NCBI GenBank assembly: GCA_034226945.1
Contig: CP120462.1
Span: 558,001 to 622,000, forward strand
From: Picochlorum sp. SENEW3
Lineage: Eukaryota
DNA: 64,000 bases
Direction: 5' to 3'
A model generated the notes under the pieces. That model did not search any database. It was given only the letters and a program-made list of their open reading frames with translations, and had not been told where the DNA came from. Positions 561 to 60,659 of the stretch are shown here, piece by piece. Both the position numbers and the translations under genes were made by a program. How positions within the stretch are numbered: the stretch's first letter is position 1; each line of letters begins with the position of its first letter.

Positions 561-1412
561 ATGTTGGTCCAGAACATTATGTGTGGCGCGGCCCTTATTA
601 TGCTTTGTTTTTTCAGGGTTTCTTCCGCGAGAGATCTTCTCCACAACTCAGAAGGAAGGTACCCAAAAATTATACCGTACGATGACAAGAACAGTAAGCG
701 GTTCTGCACCTTTGGGTGCTCCCGTGAGTATCATGTGGAAGGTGGATCAGGGTATTCCTACTGGGGCAGAATCGACAAGTTGTATCCAGTCATCACAGAT
801 TTGAGTCGGCAAGCAGCGAAAGAGTTCTTGAAAGGAAAGAAAGGGGACATGGAGAAGCCCATGGACTCGAATGATCCAGTAATCAAAGCTTGCAACCCAA
901 AGACTCAGGATGTATTGAACAGTATTGTTGTGAGAAATGCATGTGGAAGCATTGGTGGGGAAGGAAATGACGATGATTTCATCGACCAGATTTTGATTCA
1001 ATTCACCATCGATGTCCCCTGCAGTAAAAAAACAATGGCAAAACTGGAGAAGCAAGGGATCACATATCCTGAAACTGCAGATGGCTTTTTGGTTCCTTTG
1101 AAAGCATTCACATCACAACTCGAGCCAAGAGGCAAGAGTAAGACAAATCTTTCCTTTGTACGAGTCAACCCAGACTTTTCACCAGGAGAAGTGGTTGGCC
1201 TTCCAGATACCAAGGATGGATTCCCAGATCTGAAGGGTAAAGAAGAAGACTTGGGCTGGTTCTGCAAATGTCCATATGGCAAAAGTGGCAAAACTACACG
1301 ATCATGCACCTTTATCAAATCCCTTGAAGGGTACAAGTGCGGCGACAAATCAACTCCAGACAGTCAATTGGCGTACAAAAATAATGAAATTCTTGGAAAA
1401 TGCGGTGACTAA
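561..1412 (+). CDS. hypothetical secreted Cys-containing protein
   Basis: 283-aa ORF with hydrophobic N-terminus (AALIMLCFFRVSSA) followed by RDLL, several Cys; TGTAA at 1479-1483; no recognised family. Confidence 0.7.
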   Translation: MLVQNIMCGAALIMLCFFRVSSARDLLHNSEGRYPKIIPYDDKNSKRFCTFGCSREYHVEGGSGYSYWGRIDKLYPVITDLSRQAAKEFLKGKKGDMEKPMDSNDPVIKACNPKTQDVLNSIVVRNACGSIGGEGNDDDFIDQILIQFTIDVPCSKKTMAKLEKQGITYPETADGFLVPLKAFTSQLEPRGKSKTNLSFVRVNPDFSPGEVVGLPDTKDGFPDLKGKEEDLGWFCKCPYGKSGKTTRSCTFIKSLEGYKCGDKSTPDSQLAYKNNEILGKCGD

Positions 1413-6014: not shown

Positions 6015-7015
6015 CATTTCGGCTGTTTTGTCTGTATCTCTTTTGAGAGTCATGGTGAATCTAAAGGTGGTGGGATCTGTAGATATGACCCTCTGTCTTA
6101 AGGTTGCTACAGACTCTTCGAATTGTTTGCAGTGCTCTTCTGGAATGCGGAGTTGACATTGGAATCTAATCTTGGAATGGGCAGAGTTCTCTTGCTCATT
6201 GGCAATGAGTCATTGCTGCGCTGACAATGAGCGAGTCAATATTTTTATCTGCTGCGTAGTTTTGAATATTCACTTCGAAGTGCCCGAGATATGCAAACAA
6301 AGCTTTCCTGGATATTTTTTGCATGCATGATTATATATATTATGGGAATGAGCGTAAATATTTCATTGTCATTGGGGTAGACGGACACACATGTATTTTA
6401 TCTTTAAAGATATGCTTACAACCCATACCCAGACACATGGTACCTGCACAAAGCTGTACCTTTGGTAACTGCGTTTTCATACTTGTAACGAAGGATAATG
6501 ATTTTCCTCTTGTTTACTTTGTGACAATTCATGGTGAAGTTCTCTGGTTTCAAGTTGCTGCCTTTTATTGGACTGAGCATGATACTTGCACGGATATTGA
6601 TCCTCGCGTTCCCTGGGTTGGAAACTGTGGGGTGGAATGCGGCTGATAGTGGTTTCTCAATCTGTAAAAAATCGCCTGCCGCATCAATGTTCTATATCAC
6701 GAGTCTATTTCTTTTGGATAATGATGATGATTCCATCATGGTGAGAAGAGACGAGCCACCCCTTTTTTGCTCTGGTTTTGACCCAACTGTTGACCTTGGT
6801 GCTGCAGCATGATCCCAATCACAGCATCCTCCTTGTGAATATGCACACGATACCCCTGTAGATTCCTTCCATCTGTAGAAAATATAGAATCGCGTCTAAA
6901 AACCTGCGGCAGACATTCTCGAAGAATAAAGAGCCGAGTTGACGACAGCCGAGATGCCATTCTCTTGCCAGCAGCGAGAGCATCTTCTGCCAATGTTGTG
7001 CTTGCAGCTTCCATC
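6015..7015 (-). pseudogene. degenerate coding-like fragments of unknown origin
   Basis: Protein-like minus-strand stretches (MEAASTTLAED..., NIDAAGDFLQIEKPL...YGL, IANEQENSAH...TAEM) broken by in-frame stops and frameshifts. Confidence 0.3.
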
Positions 7016-7378
7016 GCCGCGCTAAAAGTCGAGAGAGGGTTTTGTCGTTCAAATTTAAATTTTGAAATATCTCGAATATATATATATATGTACAACCCAG
7101 GCCTCGTCAGCCCAGGCTGTGGGTACATATCAGTCCTGAAAATAGCTTCTGAGCACTGTTTGATGAAATCTTTTCTTCGCTGTTGCGTTATTTGACGACA
7201 ATAAGAACCTATTAGTTTCAAACGGATACGATTGATCGTGCATCATAGTCTTTCATATGAATGAGATAGGGTTTGGTTTCGATATATCGATATATCCTAT
7301 ATAGGAGCATAGTCATACATGCATGATGCACCCTGCAGTAGACCCCTGCAGGGCCCCGGCTGGGGTACCCCAACCGGT

Positions 7379-7736
7379 TGCATATGCCCATATGAGCCAC
7401 CTCTACCAAGATCGTGGTAGTCTCCTCGATCGAAGCTGTTTAAATTGCGAAACATTCATTGAATGAGTTACACTCGTAATACTCAATATTATCCAAAAGA
7501 AAAACTTGTGAGAAGAAAGGATCAATCTTTGTAGCAAACCTCAAGGTACGCGTCGTGCTTATGGGTGGCACACCTCCTTCCGCTGTGGTCGGACCGTGTT
7601 TGCGCATATTTTCGTGTTGCGCCTCATCCCGACATGTGGTTACTCTTGTTTACTCCTGATTTCGTTCTGTTGGTTGCAGAGGAGATGCGATTCCCCCTGG
7701 TTCTCAGCCTGATCGGCCTGGCCCTGTTGGAGCTCT
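7379..7736 (+). repeat. 358-bp inverted repeat, left copy (promoter + 5'UTR intron + most of signal peptide)
   Basis: Reverse complement of 10131-10488; differences seen only near 7402 and 7433-7436; about 300 bp (7437-7736) identical. Confidence 0.97.
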
Positions 7737-8089
7737 GTTTCTTCACAGCAACTGAAGCGCGATGCCCGAATAGCGGCAGAATCATTAGCTGCTGTGAGGC
7801 AATCGACGTCAAACTATATAAGAAAGGAACAAAAATAAATTACAATTGTGAACGTTGTGATCCAGGTTATAAAGTGAGCCCATCCAAGAACCAATGCATT
7901 CCTGATATTCCAACTGCTTGTCTGGAGGGATATGGACCTAACTCTCAAAAAAATGGCACCTGCACAAAATGCACCGATCCAAACTGCAAATCTTGCTCTT
8001 ATGAATTCAACGATTGTGTGATATGCGCAAAAGGCTACCAGTACAACGTTGACAGAGGCAATTGCGATCCGATCGTTGAACAACAGTAA
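7685..8089 (+). CDS. secreted Cys-rich protein (14 Cys; CxxC/furin-like growth-factor-receptor-type repeats), paralogue 1; 5'UTR intron 7546-7679
   Basis: Signal peptide MRFPLVLSLIGLALLELCFFTATEA; CERCDPGY, CTKC, CKSC, CVIC; intron AAG|GTACGC...TTGCAG ends 5 nt before ATG. Confidence 0.85.
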   Translation: MRFPLVLSLIGLALLELCFFTATEARCPNSGRIISCCEAIDVKLYKKGTKINYNCERCDPGYKVSPSKNQCIPDIPTACLEGYGPNSQKNGTCTKCTDPNCKSCSYEFNDCVICAKGYQYNVDRGNCDPIVEQQ

Positions 8090-8467
8090 CCATGCTCACC
8101 CCTCCTGGTTGATTACCAAACAAGTCTGCTGAACATGGGAATTCGTGTTGAATTAAACACTTCCGAGAGGGTCACAGACACACTTTATAATAAAGCCAGC
8201 ATGTGATCTGTTCACCCGCAAGACTGGTCCAAATCTTCTGTTTTGTGGGAACAAGACCCATGTAGAAGAGTGGCAGCAAAATTTTTTGGTCTCTGTCAAG
8301 GTCATGCAGACGCGCAACCACAGTATAAATGTCTTTATAGCAATGTGTTTTTTTTTTGTCGAATCGTTTCGATATACACTCAGAATGTCTCTGTAATAGC
8401 TTATCTTTGTCTATATACCCACAGGCTACTAGTAATATTGGTACTGCAAATTTGCATTCTAAAAGGG

Positions 8468-8531
8468 GCACAAGAGCAGGATATGGTTACTCTTTTCTAG
8501 AACGTGTATCCATATCTTGCTGCTCTTGTGC
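8468..8531. repeat. imperfect ~64-nt hairpin/palindrome
   Basis: GCACAAGAGCAG-GATATGG ... CCATATC-ttg-CTGCTCTTGTGC centred on TTCTAGAA. Confidence 0.75.
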
Positions 8532-8718
8532 TTTGCAATTGTATAACATGGACAACAAAAAGATGAGTTCGAGAATAGTAATAGACAAAGGCTGCATGCA
8601 ACAGCCAAAAAATAGACGCCAGAGATCGTGGAATGCCCAAATTTGGGACTTCAAAGTTGACAGAGTTAGCGAGTGAAAGGCCTGGATACCAAAGTACCAC
8701 ATGCTGCGGCGTTCCCGC

Positions 8719-9084
8719 TTATGCGCCAGGGTCGGATATGACCACTCGACGTCTGCACCTTCCTGCATATGTCGAACTCTTACCAGTGTAGCGGACCCAC
8801 TTGTATCTACTCCTGTGCAAATCGCATCTGCCACCCTCAGCATTGAACTTGAGTTCCCAAGCTCTGCACCTTTTCTTCTTTTGGCACCAGTCACGGCAGA
8901 AGACCCAATCGAAAGAAGGAGTCATGGGATCTGAAACTCTGTACGATTTGCTCATGTACTTGTCTCCTCTGACAGCCATGCCCTCCCTCCCACTGCCGCA
9001 GCGTATTTGTGCTCCGTTGACAAAAGTTGCCAAGAGCAGCACAACCAGTGTCAATCTCGCAAAGAAAGAAACTTTCATCATCAT
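8719..9084 (-). CDS. small basic secreted protein with PAN/Apple-like Cys pattern
   Basis: Signal peptide (LTLVVLLLATFVNG-A); C...CRDWC-x5-C-RAW...C-DL...GRC six-Cys pattern typical of PAN/Apple modules; Arg/Lys-rich. Confidence 0.75.
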   Translation of the reverse strand: MMMKVSFFARLTLVVLLLATFVNGAQIRCGSGREGMAVRGDKYMSKSYRVSDPMTPSFDWVFCRDWCQKKKRCRAWELKFNAEGGRCDLHRSRYKWVRYTGKSSTYAGRCRRRVVISDPGA

Positions 9085-9786
9085 ATTAAATATAAAAAAG
9101 ACAGCCCTTAATCGAATTCTATATGGTACCTATATGGTAATTAGTGTGGGTTACAGCACCAACTGGTATGCAGTATTCCGGGAAGATTCTGCTGACTGAG
9201 GTTTGAGCATGCTCAATGAGCAGGCCGCGGCCGTGAAAACCGTTGCAACGATCAATCAATTGATATCATTACCCTGTATAGATGGGCCCTGTCAGGAGAT
9301 CAACTCCTGCCATCTATTCCTAGAGGGATTATATCCGATGTAGCCGTTGATCTTTCCTGGTGTTCCACTGTGTTCAATGGGCCACGCAATGAACATGTGT
9401 TCATAAATCCCATGATGCTTAAACTAGAAGGTCAGATTTGGCATGGACATATCTTGTTAATCAGCCATCAATTGTATTACAATGGATTTAAATTTAAACT
9501 CAAAAATGAATGAGGAGGAAAATCAGGAAGAAGCGACAAGTTCGAAGAAACAATCTAGACATAAATGTACCGACAAAGGAACGTTGACATCTACCTTGCA
9601 AAAGCAGCACTAGACCCACAAAAGATAACTGTGCCTGACATAGTGCAACTGGATGAGAGCCAACGACAGATTCCTAAAAGCAGCAAGTAATACCGTTGTT
9701 GCAAAACAAGAGATGGCTTGATAGCACAAATACATGACTGCAATATCGACACTCGCCTCAGCCATTGGCCAACATGTATCGTGACC

Positions 9787-10182
9787 TTAAGCAAATGAAG
9801 GAATAGGCCTCAGACATCTGCCCTTATACAAATCAAAACCACGTCTGCATTTTGTGCACGTCACGAACGATTCGTAGCAAGATTTGCAGTCCTTGACATC
9901 GCATGGTTGACATGCTGTCGAATCGTATCGAACCAATCCCTCGCCAGCTTTGCACACATTGACTGGTCTACACTGCTCCTTGCTCGCAGAGACAGCAAAC
10001 CCTGGGTCGCATTCGTCACATTTGTACGTGACGATCCCAGGGAATCCATCCGGTGGTATTTCTCGAGGGCTTTTGCAGCAGGAAATCGGTGGCCCCGCGC
10101 TAGGACATATTGAATATTCTGCTGCTGCAGAGAGCTCCAACAGGGCCAGGCCGATCAGGCTGAGAACCAGGGGGAATCGCAT
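9787..10182 (-). CDS. secreted Cys-rich protein (14 Cys), paralogue 2; 5'UTR intron 10321-10188
   Basis: Same first 17 aa as paralogue 1, then divergent; the same 14-Cys framework (CP..ISCC..CDECDPGF..QC..C..CQPC..CKSC..CTKC..G..C). Confidence 0.85.
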   Translation of the reverse strand: MRFPLVLSLIGLALLELSAAAEYSICPSAGPPISCCKSPREIPPDGFPGIVTYKCDECDPGFAVSASKEQCRPVNVCKAGEGLVRYDSTACQPCDVKDCKSCYESFVTCTKCRRGFDLYKGRCLRPIPSFA

Positions 10183-10488
10183 CTCCTCTGCAACCAACAG
10201 AACGAAATCAGGAGTAAACAAGAGTAACCACATGTCGGGATGAGGCGCAACACGAAAATATGCGCAAACACGGTCCGACCACAGCGGAAGGAGGTGTGCC
10301 ACCCATAAGCACGACGCGTACCTTGAGGTTTGCTACAAAGATTGATCCTTTCTTCTCACAAGTTTTTCTTTTGGATAATATTGAGTATTACGAGTGTAAC
10401 TCATTCAATGAATGTTTCGCAATTTAAACAAGCTCGATCGAGGAGACTACCACGATCTTGGTAGCGGTGGCTCATATGGGCATATGCA
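10131..10488 (-). repeat. 358-bp inverted repeat, right copy
   Basis: Reverse complement of 7379-7736. Confidence 0.97.
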
Positions 10489-10680
10489 TTTAATAAATGC
10501 AAATTTGCAATGCAACCCCAGCCGCTGGGGCCCAGAACTCCCACCTATATAGAACATAGCCATTGGAGTTTTTGTTTCTTTCTGTTAATTCTACTGCAAG
10601 GTAATCATGTAGAGAACTATCTCTTGTACGGTTGCCCTCTGTTACTAACAGACGGCTGTCTGGTAAGAAATAATACTGTA

Positions 10681-11326
10681 CTCGACTAGATTATCAGACA
10701 AAGTCATCACACACACCCTTGAATTCAGATTTCGAGTTCAGATATCGAATTGCCACATCTTTGATCGCCCATAACTTGGCCTGCTTGGCGAACCAAGGGT
10801 AGAGACTCGCTCCACAGGACCTGGCTCATTGAGGGATCGACCCTATTCGGCGAGCAATCCAGGAAACGCCCGCAAGGTGAGACATGACATCTGTTGCATC
10901 CTCCACTCAGCTCTCACCATACATGGTCATGCAATTGTGCAGATTGCTGATAAATGTAACATGGAAGGCTGATAAATAACAGAATAGTATCAGTAAACGT
11001 TAGAGTATTCAGACGAAGAAGAAGGAACCATTGATATTGACGAGAGCAATGATGAACTATTTATTGGAGTGCAGGAAGAAGGTGAACAGGCCCAATCATC
11101 ATGATGCCCTTCAAATCGCCACTATGGCACTATCTTTGAGTAGGAGTGGGACTCAAAGTATTCACTAGACTTGTATCAATCGTGTAACATCGTTACATGA
11201 GCAGTAGAGTGACATCAAGGCCTGTTTCTGGGGCAGATCATGATCATCCTGCCTCTAATATGAAATCGGTTGTCATGACAACAAGTCCTAAATCATCCTA
11301 ATAATGTCACACACAATTTAGTCGAG
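10681..11326. mobile_element. possible non-autonomous TIR element remnant flanked by TA
   Basis: TA|CTCGACTAGATT ... AATTTAGTCGAG|TA (12-bp inverted ends, 1 mismatch); interior has stop-broken coding-like text with an acidic tail (EYSDEEEGTIDIDESNDE). Confidence 0.3.
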
Positions 11327-11645
11327 TAGAGCAAAGCATGTAACAGTTAATATTATTAAATTTTATCTATTTATGCCGGATTGTGAATGAAATATCATCA
11401 CAGGTGCGTTCTGCCAGTAGAAAGCGTCACCTTTCTTTGGGAGCGTGATTCGATCAGTGGAGATTTCACGCTGATAGCCTTTACAACGCATGCGATTCAA
11501 ATACATTCAAATACAATATTAACTAAAATAGTCTCAATTCGGTATATTCTGTCTTGCAGTTGAGCAACACTCTTGACGGTTGAACGTCTGATTTGTTCGT
11601 TGGTTTGTTGACAGGGGCACGAGTACCTGTGTAGATGGAATAAAC

Positions 11646-31339: not shown

Positions 31340-32359
31340 ATGGGTACAGTACTACGAGAATCAACGGAATCAATTGACACACAGGACGACCTGCTTCCGT
31401 TGCTGGAACGGTTGGGTATTTCGACAAACAGCAGCACAAGTTTCGATACAGAAAAGGAGAAGGCATCATCATCTGATCAACATATAAATACTACAGCAAG
31501 AGAAAAAAATGAGTCTCTGTGGAGCAGCACGAGAGAGAATACTGAAGAAGAAGAAGAAGAAGAAAACTTGGAAGTGATCTACCTGTTGGATAGCGATTCA
31601 GACAATGGTCGTCATGACGATGGAGATCTGCGAACTCGGATAGCAGACGACGCATCATCTCTATCACATACCATGTTTATGAAGAAGAGGGAGTTTGTAG
31701 CGAGGGACATGTTTCAAGAGTACAATGAATTGATTTTTGACTCTCAACTACCATCAGATGTTGACATTTCATGGAATGTTCGTCTGGCCACGACAGCTGG
31801 ATTAACCCATTATTCGAGGCGATATAATGACTCTGGAGTACTGGTATACACCGCACGGATTGAACTCGCGTCGAAAGTAGTAGACACAGTGGATCGATTG
31901 GAGCGAACACTCATCCATGAAATGTGCCACTGTGCATCCTGGTTGATTGACCACGTGGCCAAACCTCCCCACGGACTGGTGTTCAAAAAATGGGCAGATA
32001 GAGCCATGGCTCTTCTGCCTCGGGTGGATGTGTCCACCTGCCATAATTACGACATCTTCTATCCCCATCGATGGCAGTGTACTGCATGCTTTCATGAGTA
32101 CAAGAGGCATTCCAAAAGCATCGACGTCGACAAAAAAGTGTGCGGATCGTGTCGAGGGAGACTCGAGTATCTTGGAAAGTTTACACGACATGGCAATTCG
32201 CCACAGAAGAAGGGCAACATGTACAGTGCCTATGTGGCCAAGAATTTCAGCAAGATTAAGCAAGCATCTGACCCAGGGACGAGTGCTGTGGATGTGATGA
32301 AAAAGATTGCTGCCATGTGGCATATTGAAAAGACAGCCATGCCTGCGTGCCATTCATAA
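31340..32359 (+). CDS. SprT-like metalloprotease (GCNA/ACRC-like) with Zn ribbon and HMG-box-like tail
   Basis: Acidic N-terminus; WNVRLATTAG, IELASKV, TLIHEMCH, PHG..FK.W, CTAC...CGSC. Confidence 0.88.
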   Translation: MGTVLRESTESIDTQDDLLPLLERLGISTNSSTSFDTEKEKASSSDQHINTTAREKNESLWSSTRENTEEEEEEENLEVIYLLDSDSDNGRHDDGDLRTRIADDASSLSHTMFMKKREFVARDMFQEYNELIFDSQLPSDVDISWNVRLATTAGLTHYSRRYNDSGVLVYTARIELASKVVDTVDRLERTLIHEMCHCASWLIDHVAKPPHGLVFKKWADRAMALLPRVDVSTCHNYDIFYPHRWQCTACFHEYKRHSKSIDVDKKVCGSCRGRLEYLGKFTRHGNSPQKKGNMYSAYVAKNFSKIKQASDPGTSAVDVMKKIAAMWHIEKTAMPACHS

Positions 32360-54698: not shown

Positions 54699-55764
54699 AT
54701 GAAGTTCTCTACTGCTTTGCTCGCAACCGCTTTGTTTGCTTCCTCTGTCTGTGGACAGGAGCCAGGTACGCTTTGGTTGCATGTGCATCGCGCATCTTGT
54801 ATCCTTGTGCATTGGTGCAACTATATGTCTGAAAATGTGTGCTTGTTCTTCGTATCGTGCATGAGGGCAACGCAGGGCGTCGGATGTGCACTTCTCGGGC
54901 GCGGTCAACGCCTCCAGTTTGTTTGTTCGAGGCCACTGCTGTGCACCGGGGACTACCAAGCGCGGCAACCGCAGCTGTCTTTACTGTTGCGTAGTATTGA
55001 ATGATGTGATTCTCTATGCAGAAATGAGCCGCTTGGGATTGTCTGTCAAGGAGCCGGTCATTGTTGAGCGGGTTGGTGCTGAAATCACTGTTGGATTCCT
55101 CACTGGTCCAAACCTCCCAAAAACCCAGTTCACTATCAAGTGCGTCGATGCTGGGGAAGACTGTGATGCCCCTGCTCGTGGTAACTCTGTCGAGGGTTTC
55201 TTGCCAATGACAAAGACTGAGATCGTGGAGACTGTGGACGGGCTTGATGCGGCAACTGACTACACCTGTTATGTGGAGACCTACTTCAGGGAGAATGGAA
55301 AGTTCTCCGTCTGCAAAGAGGCCCAGGTCCTGCCAGGAGCCGTCGGATTTGAGTTGACATATGAGCCATTCCCAGGGGCTGCCGATTTCTCAGAGGATGA
55401 CAGAGATCAGGTTTGTACCAACGTCATCAAAGCCGTCAACGACTTCATCACACCAGATGTGGCTGATACTACCACATGTAACATCTTCAAGGTGACAGAT
55501 GGATCGGCCGTCGTCTTAGGAGAGGCCATTTTTGAAGATTACCAGAATGCTGCCAAAGCCTTCGCACTCCTCGATTTATACGAGGACGAAGAGGACTTCA
55601 AAGCGGCTCTCTCTGAATTCGTAAGCGAGGGAATTACATTTGATGGTGAAGATGCAACTGCTAAGCTCACCAACTTCGGTCTGAATGCCCCGGGACCATA
55701 CAGATATGACTTTAAAAATGGAGCTAACAGCAGACGCCTCAACAGAAAGAGGTTGATGCTTTAA
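54699..55764 (+). CDS. secreted protein family paralogue A (FN3-like + SEA-like, C-terminal RRLNRKRL); exons 54699-54765, 55022-55764
   Basis: Signal exon MKFSTALLATALFASSVCG-QEP; intron GTACGC...TGCAG; ITVGF.TGPNLPKTQF..KC, GLD...Y.C.VE, GSAVV. Confidence 0.8.
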
Positions 55765-56306
55765 GAGCGTGGCCATGAAGCACCACTGCAGCGACACATT
55801 CTGTGTAAGTTTACACAGCGCTGCACTATTGTCCATATGATTGTTTTCAATACAATCCCATCATCTTCGATCTAAATCGCGTACACTGAAATCTTTTGAT
55901 AGATTTCGCATGTAAGAAGTCGATTTACTTGCTACCCCCTCTAAATCTTTATCAGGTCTCTGCCAGGAGAGGAAATCCTGGTGCCAACTGCCTTGGAATC
56001 CAAGGCTTGGATCGGCCACAGAAAATCCGCTGTGTCAGACAGAATCCTGGAAGTGTAGCGTGATGGACCTCCATCACGTCAAACGTGGATGAGCAAAAAT
56101 CTGGGTCTTCAAAAGAGGCTGTACATACAGCGGAGGTACCAAGATAAAATAACCGCGCCTTCTGATTCAGCGGAAGCTTCAGATCAATAGTATCCACAAC
56201 GTGCCACAAACACACATACATATTTTCTACAAAGTCGTGTTTTCTTGTACATACACTCAGCAATCATTTTCGAAGGTATTGTTCCAGAATTCATTCATAA
56301 AAGAGC

Positions 56307-57560
56307 ATGAAGTGGTCCGTATTCGTCGTCTGCGCAGCGTTGCTCGCCTCCGTCGCAAGGGCTCAGGATCGAGGTATGCAAGTGGGGTTTATGAGTGTTG
56401 ATCGTTAGATATGCTTTTAAAAACAATATGTCCATGGCAACAATTATACGTGGCCGGATACGGGGATACCATACGAGTGCGAGGTCAAATCACCAAACGC
56501 TACGATGCCTCGTCAGACTGCTGACTAGGAAGATAGGGAAGCTTCCGCAAATTGTACCGGAGTTGGCATCCACCTGTGGCATCTCGAAGGGGCCGGCGTG
56601 TGTGAAGCGGCAGTGGTCAATCGTGATTCATCTTTTCATTCTTCAAGTATTTTCGTATTATTGCTGCCACGGATCCGCAAAGCTCACTCCAGCGCAGATA
56701 AACTGAGGATGTGCAATACTGTGCAGGCGTAGCTTTGGCAGGAAACCAAACTGAAGATCGTCTCTTGACAGCTATCAGAGACCCGAAAGTTCTGAGACGC
56801 GATGGTACGTCTTATCTCAAATGAACTTGTGTGTGTGTTTTCAACGGGGGGAAGACATCGTTGTTATATCATTCTGAATGCTCCTGCTATTATTGTTGTT
56901 TCAGGGGATGCCATCACTGTTGGATTTTTCACCGGGCCCAACCTTCCAAAGACTCAATTTGTTGTCAAATGTGTTGCTGGAGATGGAGGTTGTGACGCAC
57001 CCGCACAGGGTATTTCTGAACAAGGCTTATTGCCTTTCAAACCATCTGAGGTTGAGGCCACCGTCGAAGGTTTGGACCCAGATGCACAATACTCTTGCTT
57101 CGTGGAAGCTTTCTTCAAGTCTACTGGAAAGTTCTCCATTTGTAAGAGAGCCGATGATAGATTCTTGGTTCGTGCAAAATTCACATTCGATGGATTTGAG
57201 AATGCTGACGAATTCACGGCAGCTGACAGAGAGCAGCTCTGCATCAACTTGAACACGATTACACCAAGTGACACGTGTGAAGTTCTCAAGGTTGAAACCG
57301 GTTCTGCCGAAGCCACCGCTGAAAGCACCTTCTCCAACACTGACGATGCCATTGAGTATCAGAATACTCTGGCAGGTGCGAACACCGATCCAGATACGCA
57401 AGAGACCATTGTGGAGGGTTTGTCTCAAGAAACCGATGTTGTGGTCAGTGACATTGAAAACTCTGGAAATCTACCACCACCATATGCACCAGATTCTGGA
57501 ACCGCTAGAAGACTCAATCGAAGGAGACTCTTTGACATTGGCAGTGACGTTGGGCTGTAG
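56307..57560 (+). CDS. secreted protein family paralogue B; exons 56307-56373, 56727-56804, 56905-57560
   Basis: Signal exon MKWSVFVVCAALLASVARA-QDR; 78-nt middle exon; phase-1 GT-AG introns; RRLNRRRLFD C-terminus. Confidence 0.85.
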
Positions 57561-59058
57561 ATGAGTCCATTCACAGAAACATGACAGTGACAGATGAACT
57601 GCAGTCTCAGTTGAGCAGAAAACCACGATTGAAAAAATAAATCCATAAAGACGCATACATATTATCACCATCCTGTTTACGTTGTTGGACTCTTGCTGTC
57701 ACAGCCAAAATAGAAACCACTTGATGCCAAATTCCATACCATGTTTTAAATGTTGATATCATTCTGAGACAGAATGTAAAAAAGACCATGTACTTGCTTG
57801 CTTGCTTTCCATGATCAGGTCTGCACTAAAGCTTCATGATACACTATGACGACGCAAGCTGGATCAAAAGGTGACTGCCATGTTTGATTCAAGTTCGAAA
57901 AGAAAAACATGTGCTTTTCCTTATTACTAGGGATATTCATGGGACGGATCGATGGTCTTCTTGGGCATTCTTGGAATCAGATATTGGATTGATCAAAACA
58001 CTGGATTGACCAAGTAATGGAGTTTTCTTTCCCTGAGACAATACTCGGCATCTTGGCTGCAGATTTTGGATATTTAATCCTACGCACAACCTTTTAGTTT
58101 GATACTGTCCTATTAAGAAAATACCCAGTCTTTTGACCACGAGCTCGTGCCCTTTTCCGACGGCAATACCAAAGCCAGAGCATACACATATCTGTCTGTG
58201 GAGATCCAGGCGCTACATTCCATGCAACAGCTTTAACCACACAGACTGCAAATTTACTTGCATCGATAGCTGGGAATCTGATCGGAGCCGCCCAGGTCTC
58301 CCAATGACCACATGCACCAAGTTGTCAGATTGTCATCTAATGCAGTTGACTACCGTAGTAATACAACTTGGATGCGGTGATCGCAGTGCGATCCCACAGA
58401 TGAAATACACGAGCCCCAGTGTGATCGCAAACCTTCCTGTAGTGAAAGTCCCTTCATGCGCACAATTTCTTTCTGCTCGCACTTTTTTCCCCATGGACTG
58501 GCGTCTTCCCAATCTTTTGGTCACCAGCTGGTGGCACTGCAGAGATGCCGTAAAAAAAGTCGTTACATCCATGTAGATGTTCCTGGGTATTTCCAATACA
58601 TATATCACAAGCGATATGTATTCCAACGAACTCTGTCCATCCAAGATATGTGTTAGCCACGTAGGAAGGATTCATCATGCCAACTTTAACACCTTTGGAT
58701 CCAAGGTATCAATGTCTAGGATCAACATTCTCGGAGCCGACAACATCTCTTGGATCGGCTGCAGAATCTATTCTTCTGTGTCAGACACAGCTATGTTTTC
58801 ATAGCCTGGCATCGCCTCACGATGCCTGACCTAGACAACCACATATCTGGGTTGGAGCAATATGCCGTACATATTGCGGAGACGTAGCATCAAGGTAAAT
58901 TAGGCGCGCTTTCTGATCCGAGGTAGGTTCTTCATCGCATTCTGTCTTCATAACTCGCCGCAGCGTTACACGCCGCCCACACAAATATCGTTCTTGTACA
59001 TACACTCAGCGATCCTTTTTTGAAGGTATTTTTCCTCCAAAATCATTCATCAATGAGC

Positions 59059-60296
59059 ATGAAGTGGTCAGTTTTCGTCGTGTGTGCGGCGTTGCTCGCC
59101 TCCGTGGCAAGGGCTCAGGATCCAGGTATGCGATTGGGGTTTACGAGTATTTGCTGGTATTTTAAATACAATAGTTCTGCTCATCCGGATGCGGTGGAGC
59201 CACGTCATAGCGCGGGTCAACTTACCGGAAGCTACAATGTGTCAGCGCCAGATACCCCGCGGCAGATTTGCTCCGCGATCGCTGCCTACCTTGAGTGGCC
59301 ACTCAATGACCATTCAGGGGAGAGACGCGATCAATTGCTATACGGATTTTCAGCTGTTGAATATTTTTGAATTTATGGGGCGGCATAGAGCCGCATGAGT
59401 CACAAGAGCGCAGGTAGTATCAGACAAACTGAGAGTGTGCAATATTGTGCAGATGTGGCATTGGCTGCAAACCAAACTGAGGAACGCCTCTTGACATCTA
59501 TCAGAGACCCAATTATTTTGGATCGTACCGGTACGTTGCATATTAATGCAATCTTTTCGTCTCCTGATGGAAACATACAAATCAACATGGCATTCTGACT
59601 GACTCTGCCAATTCATATTGTCATTGTACAGGTGATGCCATCACGGTTGGATTCATCACGGGACCAAATCTTCCAAAGACCCAGTTTGTCGTCAAATGCG
59701 TTGCTGGAGACGGCGATTGCGACGCACCAGCACAGGGTGTTTCCGCCGAAGGAGAATTGCCTCTGAAAAAGGCTGAGATTGAGGCCACTGTAGAAGGTTT
59801 GGATCCAGATGCGGCATACTCTTGCTTTGTGGAAGCATTCTACAGGCCGACTGGAAAGCTCAACATTTGCAAGAAGGCTGCAGATCAAGAAGTATTCTCA
59901 GTCCGCGCGACATTTACATTTGACGGATTTGCCGATGCTGATGCATTCACTGCCGCTGACAGGGAACAACTCTGCATCAACTTGAACACTATTTCACCAG
60001 GTGGAATATGCGTCGTTGAAAAGGTCGAATCTGGTTCTGCCATTCCAACCGTCCGTAATGACTATACCACGCCAGAAGGAGCTACTCTGCTTGACGAGGG
60101 TCTGATTGCTTCTGGTACTTTTGTCCAAGAAACACTCGTCCAGGGGCTTTCTCAGCCAACTACTGTGACAGTTGATAGTATTGAGACTTCCGGAAACGTT
60201 CCACCACCACCTCCAGGATACTCACCAAACCCTCCACCCGCTAGAAGACTTAACAGAAGAAGACTGTTTGACATGAACAGTGACATCGGATTTTAA
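59059..60296 (+). CDS. secreted protein family paralogue C; exons 59059-59125, 59453-59530, 59632-60296
   Basis: Same exon structure and signal peptide as B; PPPPPGYSPNPPP then ARRLNRRRLFD. Confidence 0.85.
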
Positions 60297-60659
60297 AGCA
60301 AATCGTACCATGATAGCACTGTGCTACCAGTAGTTGTAGTGAAGAGAATACCACGATTGAACGAAAGACAGAACCACTGTATATAAAACCACACATGTTA
60401 GCATACCTGTTTTGTTGTATCGAAGACTGTTTTGATTACATACAGAAAAGGAACCACTCGATACCAAATTCCTGACCATATATTGATGTCCATACCATAT
60501 CATTCTGAGGAAGAATGTAAATCCAACCATCCATGATTTGTATTACATGCGTCGTTTGTGTAACAATGTAGATGCATATGAAGTATATATATTTGTGGAG
60601 AGTCAGTATGAGAGCAAGCAACAAACCATCATGGTAGATATTGATGCATGCATCTGTAT

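Follow-up and report, generated by a model that had tools for sequence, protein, structure and literature searches.

A near-identical leader on two payload types of secreted 14-cysteine proteins in Picochlorum sp. SENEW3, probably kept uniform by ectopic gene conversion

Five genes for small secreted proteins on one chromosome of Picochlorum sp. SENEW3 carry one and the same leader in front of only two types of payload, A (genes A1 and A2) and B (genes B1–B3). We consider it likely that a leader was first captured and that ectopic gene conversion then acted repeatedly, while selection probably spared divergent modules from overwriting. A1 and B1 lie in the window, that is, the analysed 64,000-nt stretch of contig CP120462.1, whose numbering is used below unless a contig is named. 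The initial annotation, made from the letters of the window, had offered either inversion with antigenic-type switching or gene conversion as an explanation of this pair; the repeat itself is confirmed and copying of the leader by conversion is supported, while inversion or an antigenic switch is unsupported.

The leader copies of A1 (7379–7736, plus strand) and B1 (10131–10488, minus strand) are the arms of a 358-nt inverted repeat, 99% complementary and spaced by 2394 nt. It is the sole pair longer than 40 nt among the seven inverted pairs listed for the 64-kb window, the remaining six being below 40 nt and at 71–74%. The arms have four mismatches, at 7402 and 7434–7436, all within the first 58 nt; the longest identical run, of 300 nt, follows this segment, in agreement with the earlier reading of about 300 identical bp including the intron and synonymous sites. 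The block consists of 167 nt of upstream and 5′UTR sequence, a 134-nt GT..AG intron and 17 codons from the start of the signal peptide. The predicted 5′UTR intron of A1 (7546–7679, plus strand) ends 5 nt before the ATG, and that of B1 is predicted at 10188–10321; an external gene model from a Picochlorum relative (P0006) reads KPQEEM across the same intron junction, and GT-AG candidates are found at the equivalent place in all four older paralogues. The abrupt end of identity inside the signal peptide, also noticed initially, is located at codon 17, after MRFPLVLSLIGLALLEL.

The coding region of A1 (P0001, 134 aa; 7685–8089, plus strand) and that of B1 (P0002, 131 aa; 9787–10182, minus strand) both encode secreted 14-Cys proteins. 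Beyond the leader they differ with pS 0.73 and pN 0.52; 39 of 120 aligned columns are identical (32.5%) and all 14 cysteines are kept, close to the third estimated by eye in the initial annotation. The 3′ flank common to A1 and A2 (8090–8432, plus strand) ends shortly past a TGTAA motif, which we take to be the chlorophyte poly(A) signal, and another flank (9423–9786, minus strand) is common to B1, B2 and partly B3. The interior contains a third gene, not mentioned initially (P0003, 121 aa; 8719–9084, minus strand), which bears no leader, has a signal peptide by eye and a weak PAN_4 match (E 0.0016, below the cut-off), and has a paralogue at C2:16324 with 73% amino acid identity.

Scanning of the genome (13.85 Mb, 14 contigs) with the leader yielded six matches, two in the window, three elsewhere on the same contig (C11) and a partial one (67 nt, 79%) at a paralogue on contig C1. 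The three extra copies (C11:500967-503749, 95–96%) are situated 62–65 kb upstream of the window pair and had been missed in the initial annotation. The window pair is not an isolated one. This second cluster contains A2 (C11:503698-504099), a 99% copy of A1 (97.8% over 1046 nt), as well as B2 (C11:500621-501016, minus strand; 93.7% to B1 over 1035 nt) and B3 (C11:501715-502119, plus strand), the latter two standing head to head on either side of 146 nt of spacer. No extra copies of A or B payload DNA were found in the genome search. Protein searches of the genome, with ten matches each, retrieved nine genes: the five leader-bearing ones, all on C11, plus four older paralogues (contigs C1, C1, C4 and C9). 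A metagenome scan for related loci gave 229 pattern matches, none of them confirmed.

The histories of leaders and payloads disagree. Over the 328 nt common to all five leader copies there are 14 variable sites, eight of which split A1 and B1 from A2, B2 and B3, and none of which follow the payload type; three others are shared by B2 and B3, and three mark A2. Three more sites come from a 3-nt change found in A1 only. Pairwise differences amount to 3 between the leaders of A1 and B1, 0 for B2/B3, 6 for A2/B2, and 11–14 between clusters. At the same time, A1 and A2 differ at 13 of 326 leader nucleotides vs 1 of 354 coding ones (Fisher P 0.0006); for B1 and B2 the values are 10 of 326 in the leader and 1 of 216 in the N-terminal payload, not a significant difference (P 0.057). 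Leaders thus sort by cluster and payloads by type, that is, adjacent segments have incompatible genealogies, and identical tracts that include neutral sites end abruptly (the 300-nt one in A1/B1, and 560 nt in B2/B3 with no differences and divergence afterwards). Both features are characteristic of gene conversion and bear out the earlier claim that copying or homogenisation of the leader took place independently of what lies behind it.

The same comparisons bear on whether purifying selection alone could hold the leader constant while mature domains diverge, in conopeptide or mussel CRP-I style. A conserved signal followed by a variable mature region on a cysteine scaffold is a known pattern, as described in the available part of PMC10138031, yet here the intron and synonymous sites are identical across 300 nt although payload pS reaches 0.73, the leader differs by 3–4% between clusters, so these sites are free to change, and the leaders of the older paralogues have diverged. 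The between-cluster differences largely refute such an explanation, and we regard it as very improbable.

The B genes are nearly identical apart from an island. B1 and B2 differ at 30 of 125 nt in the last 42 codons (24%, P 1.5e-13 against the N-terminal payload; 9791–9915, minus strand), synonymous sites included, then at 0 of 96 nt after the stop codon and at approximately 24 of 270 farther on. In the island pS is 0.23–0.33 and pN 0.15–0.28, whereas just upstream none of 53 synonymous sites differ, which indicates old divergence within recently homogenised flanks. Positive selection on the island is not supported, since pN stays at or below pS. In the fold model built from 20 sequences the island coincides with the last furin-like repeat. 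Its sparing is probably due to selection that keeps different versions of this repeat; the island could also persist simply since divergence now blocks pairing.

As for the origin of the leader, among the four older paralogues it aligns only to a B-like gene on C1, and this alignment spans the 5′ exon, the intron ends and the signal peptide. In the tree of 25 mature domains, for which the tool warns of long-branch joins, B groups with the same C1 gene (support 100/100), and A groups with P0016 and P0029, with a support of 92/92 that stays below the starred threshold; these two proteins have unrelated signal peptides. As the leader aligns to the B-like gene and the A payload groups with P0016 and P0029, A1 and A2 are, judging by sequence, chimeras of a B-lineage leader and an A-lineage payload.

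Four of the 20 listed sequencing runs were compared, X2, X4, X5 and X16 (the latter probably a DNA run), all as k-mer contigs; among the pieces listed, none covers an entire leader together with the flanks on both sides. They are relevant for the suspicion, raised initially, that assembly or polishing collapsed two leaders into one. Near-identical repeats are liable to mis-polishing, but the leaders have cluster-specific haplotypes and four private mismatches, and read-derived contigs of X2 hold both allele sets. The window alleles make up approximately 46% and 48% of X2 depth at two diagnostic sites, closer to two of five copies than to one of five, with X2 possibly being the source sample and hence not independent. 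Moreover, contigs of X4, X5 and X16 pass from the leader end into the A payload (7682, 7707 and 7702 onward), so that the chimera is older than the split of these strains, and database proteins P0008 and P0005 bear the leader on A and on B. An artefact is hardly credible in view of these data.

The payloads are conserved between strains. Among the variants listed (40 listed, 236 more), the A payload in X5 differs at 2 of 649 nt, compared with 52 of 3021 across four contigs of the flanks (P 0.0035), and a second strain comparison of this payload gave 3 of 413 nt. Its variation between strains is 0.3–0.9% against 1.3–2.3% in the flanks. Among named relatives, those from Picochlorum come closest to B1, with 98% identity at full length in one strain and, in another species, 90% over 47% of the length with a frame shift thereafter. 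X5 holds a B3-type end, and a named relative keeps the last repeat of B1 unchanged, which points to stable paralogous types rather than strain-variable antigens. Of the earlier proposal of recurrent conversion in a diversifying family, the conversion is retained and the rapid diversification abandoned, there being two payload types, both strain-conserved. A hypervariable family of the conopeptide or CRP-I type was rejected for this reason and because pN is at or below pS. No loose 3′ ends of the leader pointing to more payload types were seen among the 24 listed of 57. Separately, one X16 contig joins 9441 to 10108, removing most of the B1 payload.

Some strain data are suggestive, though only suggestive, of homogenisation after strain divergence, as such contigs drop minority alleles. 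A unique X5 contig at the A1 flank has the second cluster's bases at 7388 and 7391, and in the collapsed X5 leader contig position 10195 bears a substitution that is seen in none of the five copies here, nor in X4 or X16. The depth of the collapsed contig, approximately 3.3–3.7 copies, also fits five non-identical copies with minority alleles dropped, for which 3.86 is expected, and need not mean that all X5 leaders are identical.

An alternative history would comprise a few one-off events: the leader was captured once, segments were duplicated, and B1 converted A1 on one recent occasion, with neither ongoing homogenisation nor selection on the divergent module. The window pair taken alone requires one event, and very low structural mutation rates have been reported for five green algae, in the part of the preprint available (bioRxiv 10.1101/2022.02.09.479524), with poor short-read detection according to its authors. 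Still, at least three separate tracts would be needed (the A1/B1 leader, the 560 nt of B2/B3 and the N-terminal payload of B1/B2), these have different partners and ends, and leader states vary between strains. It is from these other tracts and from the strains that we infer recurrence of conversion, and a history of one-off events seems unlikely.

We next consider a functional inversion switch, in which a crossover between leaders flips the interior, or the B2–A2 segment, and A and B are exclusive behind an active distal region. The geometry allows it: 300 identical nucleotides lie 2.4 kb apart, an inverted shared 5′ sequence bounds alternative payloads, the outer flanks of the pair differ (a palindrome-rich stretch on one side, a MITE on the other), and inverted leader pairs are present in the second cluster as well. 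The vpma genes of Mycoplasma, with a common 5′UTR and signal peptide, switch behind a single promoter, and do so even when their recombinase is absent (available part of PMC5634654). Against this, all five copies carry the leader with 137–167 nt upstream of the intron donor, and none looks promoterless by anatomy; the 99% A copy and two B copies in the second cluster mean that a flip would not silence a type; and the reciprocal chimera, an A leader with a B payload, was not found in genome searches. The initial annotation saw no recombinase in the window, and genome-wide searches for two families, of tyrosine (PF00589) and serine (PF00239) recombinases, gave one match each, both on contig C5 and none on C11. 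The two candidates on C5 were rejected, both being unlinked: the resolvase-like match is stop-interrupted and overlaps an IS605/IS607 OrfB-like ORF, and the integrase-like ORF is below the cut-off. With a leader on every copy and no linked member of these two recombinase families, the suggested shufflon or antigenic-type exchange of payloads finds no support, and a functional switch appears quite improbable.

A recombinase-free eukaryotic cassette is similarly doubtful; here the leader of a cluster would be a resident expression unit kept uniform by recombination, and crossover would swap A and B between distal contexts. That these contexts are the MITE side and the palindrome side, altering which secreted protein a clone makes, is likewise a long shot. 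Inversions that did switch expression would make the locus an example of phase variation in a free-living eukaryote; the present evidence does not lead that way.

The flanks mentioned above have features of their own. A unique palindrome stretch adjoins the A1 leader (7279–7388), 75% of it covered by perfect palindromes of at least 6 nt, and a palindrome-dense stretch (9190–9290) lies close to the B1 unit's 3′ end. The MITE-like element, with terminal inverted repeats (10679–11328), lies 190 nt upstream of the B1 leader and has three full copies (78–80%) and one short copy elsewhere in the genome. At five of nine duplication boundaries a 100-nt window within 300 nt outside is at least 45% palindrome-covered, compared to 4.9% of the 143 overlapping control windows taken from non-coding DNA (binomial P 3e-5, with a threshold picked post hoc and non-independent windows). 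Two of the palindrome-rich flanks were searched for in the genome; neither has a second copy, so that they are no transposon end. Such flanks may be repair filler or cis-elements. Comparable palindrome patches are found at other sites, one of them upstream of the C1 paralogue (0.49).

No description of the protein family was found in titles and abstract openings of the Picochlorum literature, a coverage that leaves subscription papers mostly outside. The family profile retrieves 224 proteins at E 0.001, and the 150 of them listed are mostly long repeat proteins matched through the CxxC repeat, with a minority of short signal-peptide proteins sharing the cysteine frame. A Furin-like_2 match with E 8e-5 is under the cut-off, and 2 of 20 members match this profile, the best with 23.2 bits vs the cut-off of 28; R-spondin-2 is the best PDB match both by profile (E 0.002) and by fold. 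Fold searches were done with the 20-sequence model (pLDDT 79.5, pTM 0.48), an earlier fold from 10 sequences (mean pLDDT 61) having been left out. They gave weak similarities (a Foldseek E of 1.1e-3 at best; a top Z of 4.2, with rmsd 8.0 and 84 aligned), with no match at E 0.001 and none with Z of at least 5, and the ESM Atlas added VSP and furin-like clusters, all matches being below 0.9 and serving as leads only. Taken together, the matches weakly suggest two furin-like repeats as in R-spondin, below every curated cut-off. Giardia VSPs have a membrane anchor with a short conserved tail; identity with them was rejected, as none of the 20 members has a VSP match at E 0.01 and a C-terminal hydrophobic segment is lacking. 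All matches being weak, no transfer of function from furin-like, R-spondin or VSP proteins is warranted. The proteins may serve as small disulfide-rich binders outside the cell, with the last repeat determining their specificity.

The history that we favour, leader capture with subsequent gene conversion, can be outlined as follows. As the incongruent ancestry shows, an A payload first gained a B-type promoter region, 5′UTR intron and signal-peptide start, with the junction at codons 17–18. A and B genes were then duplicated into two clusters 62–65 kb apart. Ectopic conversion would repeatedly have overwritten tracts of a few hundred bases, producing the observed pattern: leaders homogenised between neighbours (A1 equal to B1; A2 close to B2, which equals B3), while in the B payload the initial two-thirds became uniform in all three B genes. 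Conversion appears to have been more frequent between neighbours; in general, its tracts extend up to several hundred nucleotides and its rates are higher at short distance, according to the available part of PMC3924837. Between A and B it presumably halts at codon 17 because homology ends there; in the B genes it would have spared the final furin-like repeat. As a likely effect, a few binding proteins would be expressed and secreted together, with the last repeat setting specificity. Rare inversions between the repeats may arise as a by-product and are not required.

So understood, the locus would be a compact natural case where conversion holds one module for regulation and secretion constant in front of unrelated payloads and spares one protein module. 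The spared last B repeat would mark the part that probably determines specificity in an algal family of secreted proteins apparently not described before, and so open its function to testing. The locus would also indicate that ectopic recombination is active in this alga, which has a small genome and is used in biotechnology.

Several known systems share some of these features. The sap genes of Campylobacter fetus are inverted genes with a common 5′ sequence. As in sap and in vpma of Mycoplasma agalactiae, the inverted genes studied here have a common 5′UTR and signal sequence; those systems use a single promoter, with the recombinase Xer1 in the case of vpma, whereas here the leader is on every copy and no recombinase of the two families searched is linked. 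In furin-like Cys-rich proteins, such as R-spondin Fu1-Fu2 and VSP-like proteins of Giardia, CxxC-rich hairpin repeats are found as well, but the present family is small, soluble by sequence (no membrane anchor is seen) and has its own N-terminal C-x6-8-I-x-CC hairpin.

Conopeptides are made as precursors with a conserved signal and a variable mature part. The mussel CRP-I family similarly combines a constant signal region, a fixed cysteine scaffold and a divergent mature region (PMC10138031, available part). Unlike both, the genes described here have two payload types, DNA-level identity that includes the intron, strain-conserved payloads, pN not above pS, no visible propeptide and a mature domain of approximately 110 aa.

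Divergence peaks under conversion mark selected sites, for example in exon 5 of the primate red and green opsins (available part of PMC3924837), and a similar case is GOT1p1/p2 of a copepod (available part of PMC3728101). As far as these texts go, the likeness is close: paralogues homogenised in tracts, with a sharp island of divergence and with non-coding DNA more alike than the functional coding segment. The Picochlorum genes differ from both in that the unit converted between A and B is the promoter–intron–signal leader alone, sorted by cluster, and in that the B genes contain a second, nested island.

Short perfect palindromes arranged in strings adjoin five of the nine duplication boundaries, compared to 4.9% of non-coding control windows (a post hoc test). 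These strings, located at window positions 7279-7388 and 9190-9290 and at 501292-501438, 503296-503405 and 504560-504660 of contig C11, are possibly fold-back repair filler or cis-elements; the two compared with the whole genome occur there once each.

B copies may have been lost in some lineages. A contig assembled from sequencing run X16 joins across window 9441-10108, deleting most of the B1 payload, and the P. renovo gene model P0006 has a frame shift within its B-type payload.

The repeat interior also contains a gene of a small secreted PAN-like Cys protein (window 8719-9084, minus strand), whose 73% paralogue lies near the start of contig C2 (L036, C2:16324-16656), with the coding part alone in common. 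Both clusters are flanked by short pieces of other genes (window 6323-7128; L008:5805-6026, L008 being the cluster 2 locus), namely an RTEL1 ARCH-like match (E 3.5e-5), a metallophosphoesterase fragment (E 7e-4) and, by eye, a DHHC-like motif. Orphan ORFs with signal-peptide-like starts are found beside cluster 2 (L008:2244-2867, minus strand, and L008:7793 onward) and cluster 1 (window 561-1412); a Pfam scan of two of them yielded nothing notable.

A MITE-like element of approximately 650 bp with terminal inverted and subterminal repeats occupies window 10679-11328, and the genome holds four full copies and one short copy (this one and L030, L031, L032, L033). Elsewhere, window 55073-60530 carries a tandem gene array, triplicate or duplicate, with DNA identity of 62-88%, spacing of 1.8 and 2.7 kb, and short matches to window 897-930 and 31939-31969.

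Two recombinase-like loci were observed on contig C5. An intact 575-aa ORF (L035:2880-4607, C5:576880-578607, plus strand) has a tyrosine-recombinase-like C-terminus (PF00589, E 3e-5, below the cut-off) and an N-terminus resembling, by eye, an organelle transit peptide. The other, an IS607-like element in this algal nuclear genome (L034:3426-4892, C5:1102426-1103892, minus strand), combines a resolvase broken by a stop (PF00239 above the cut-off) with an overlapping OrfB/TnpB-like ORF of 488 aa, and is possibly a Fanzor2-type relic.
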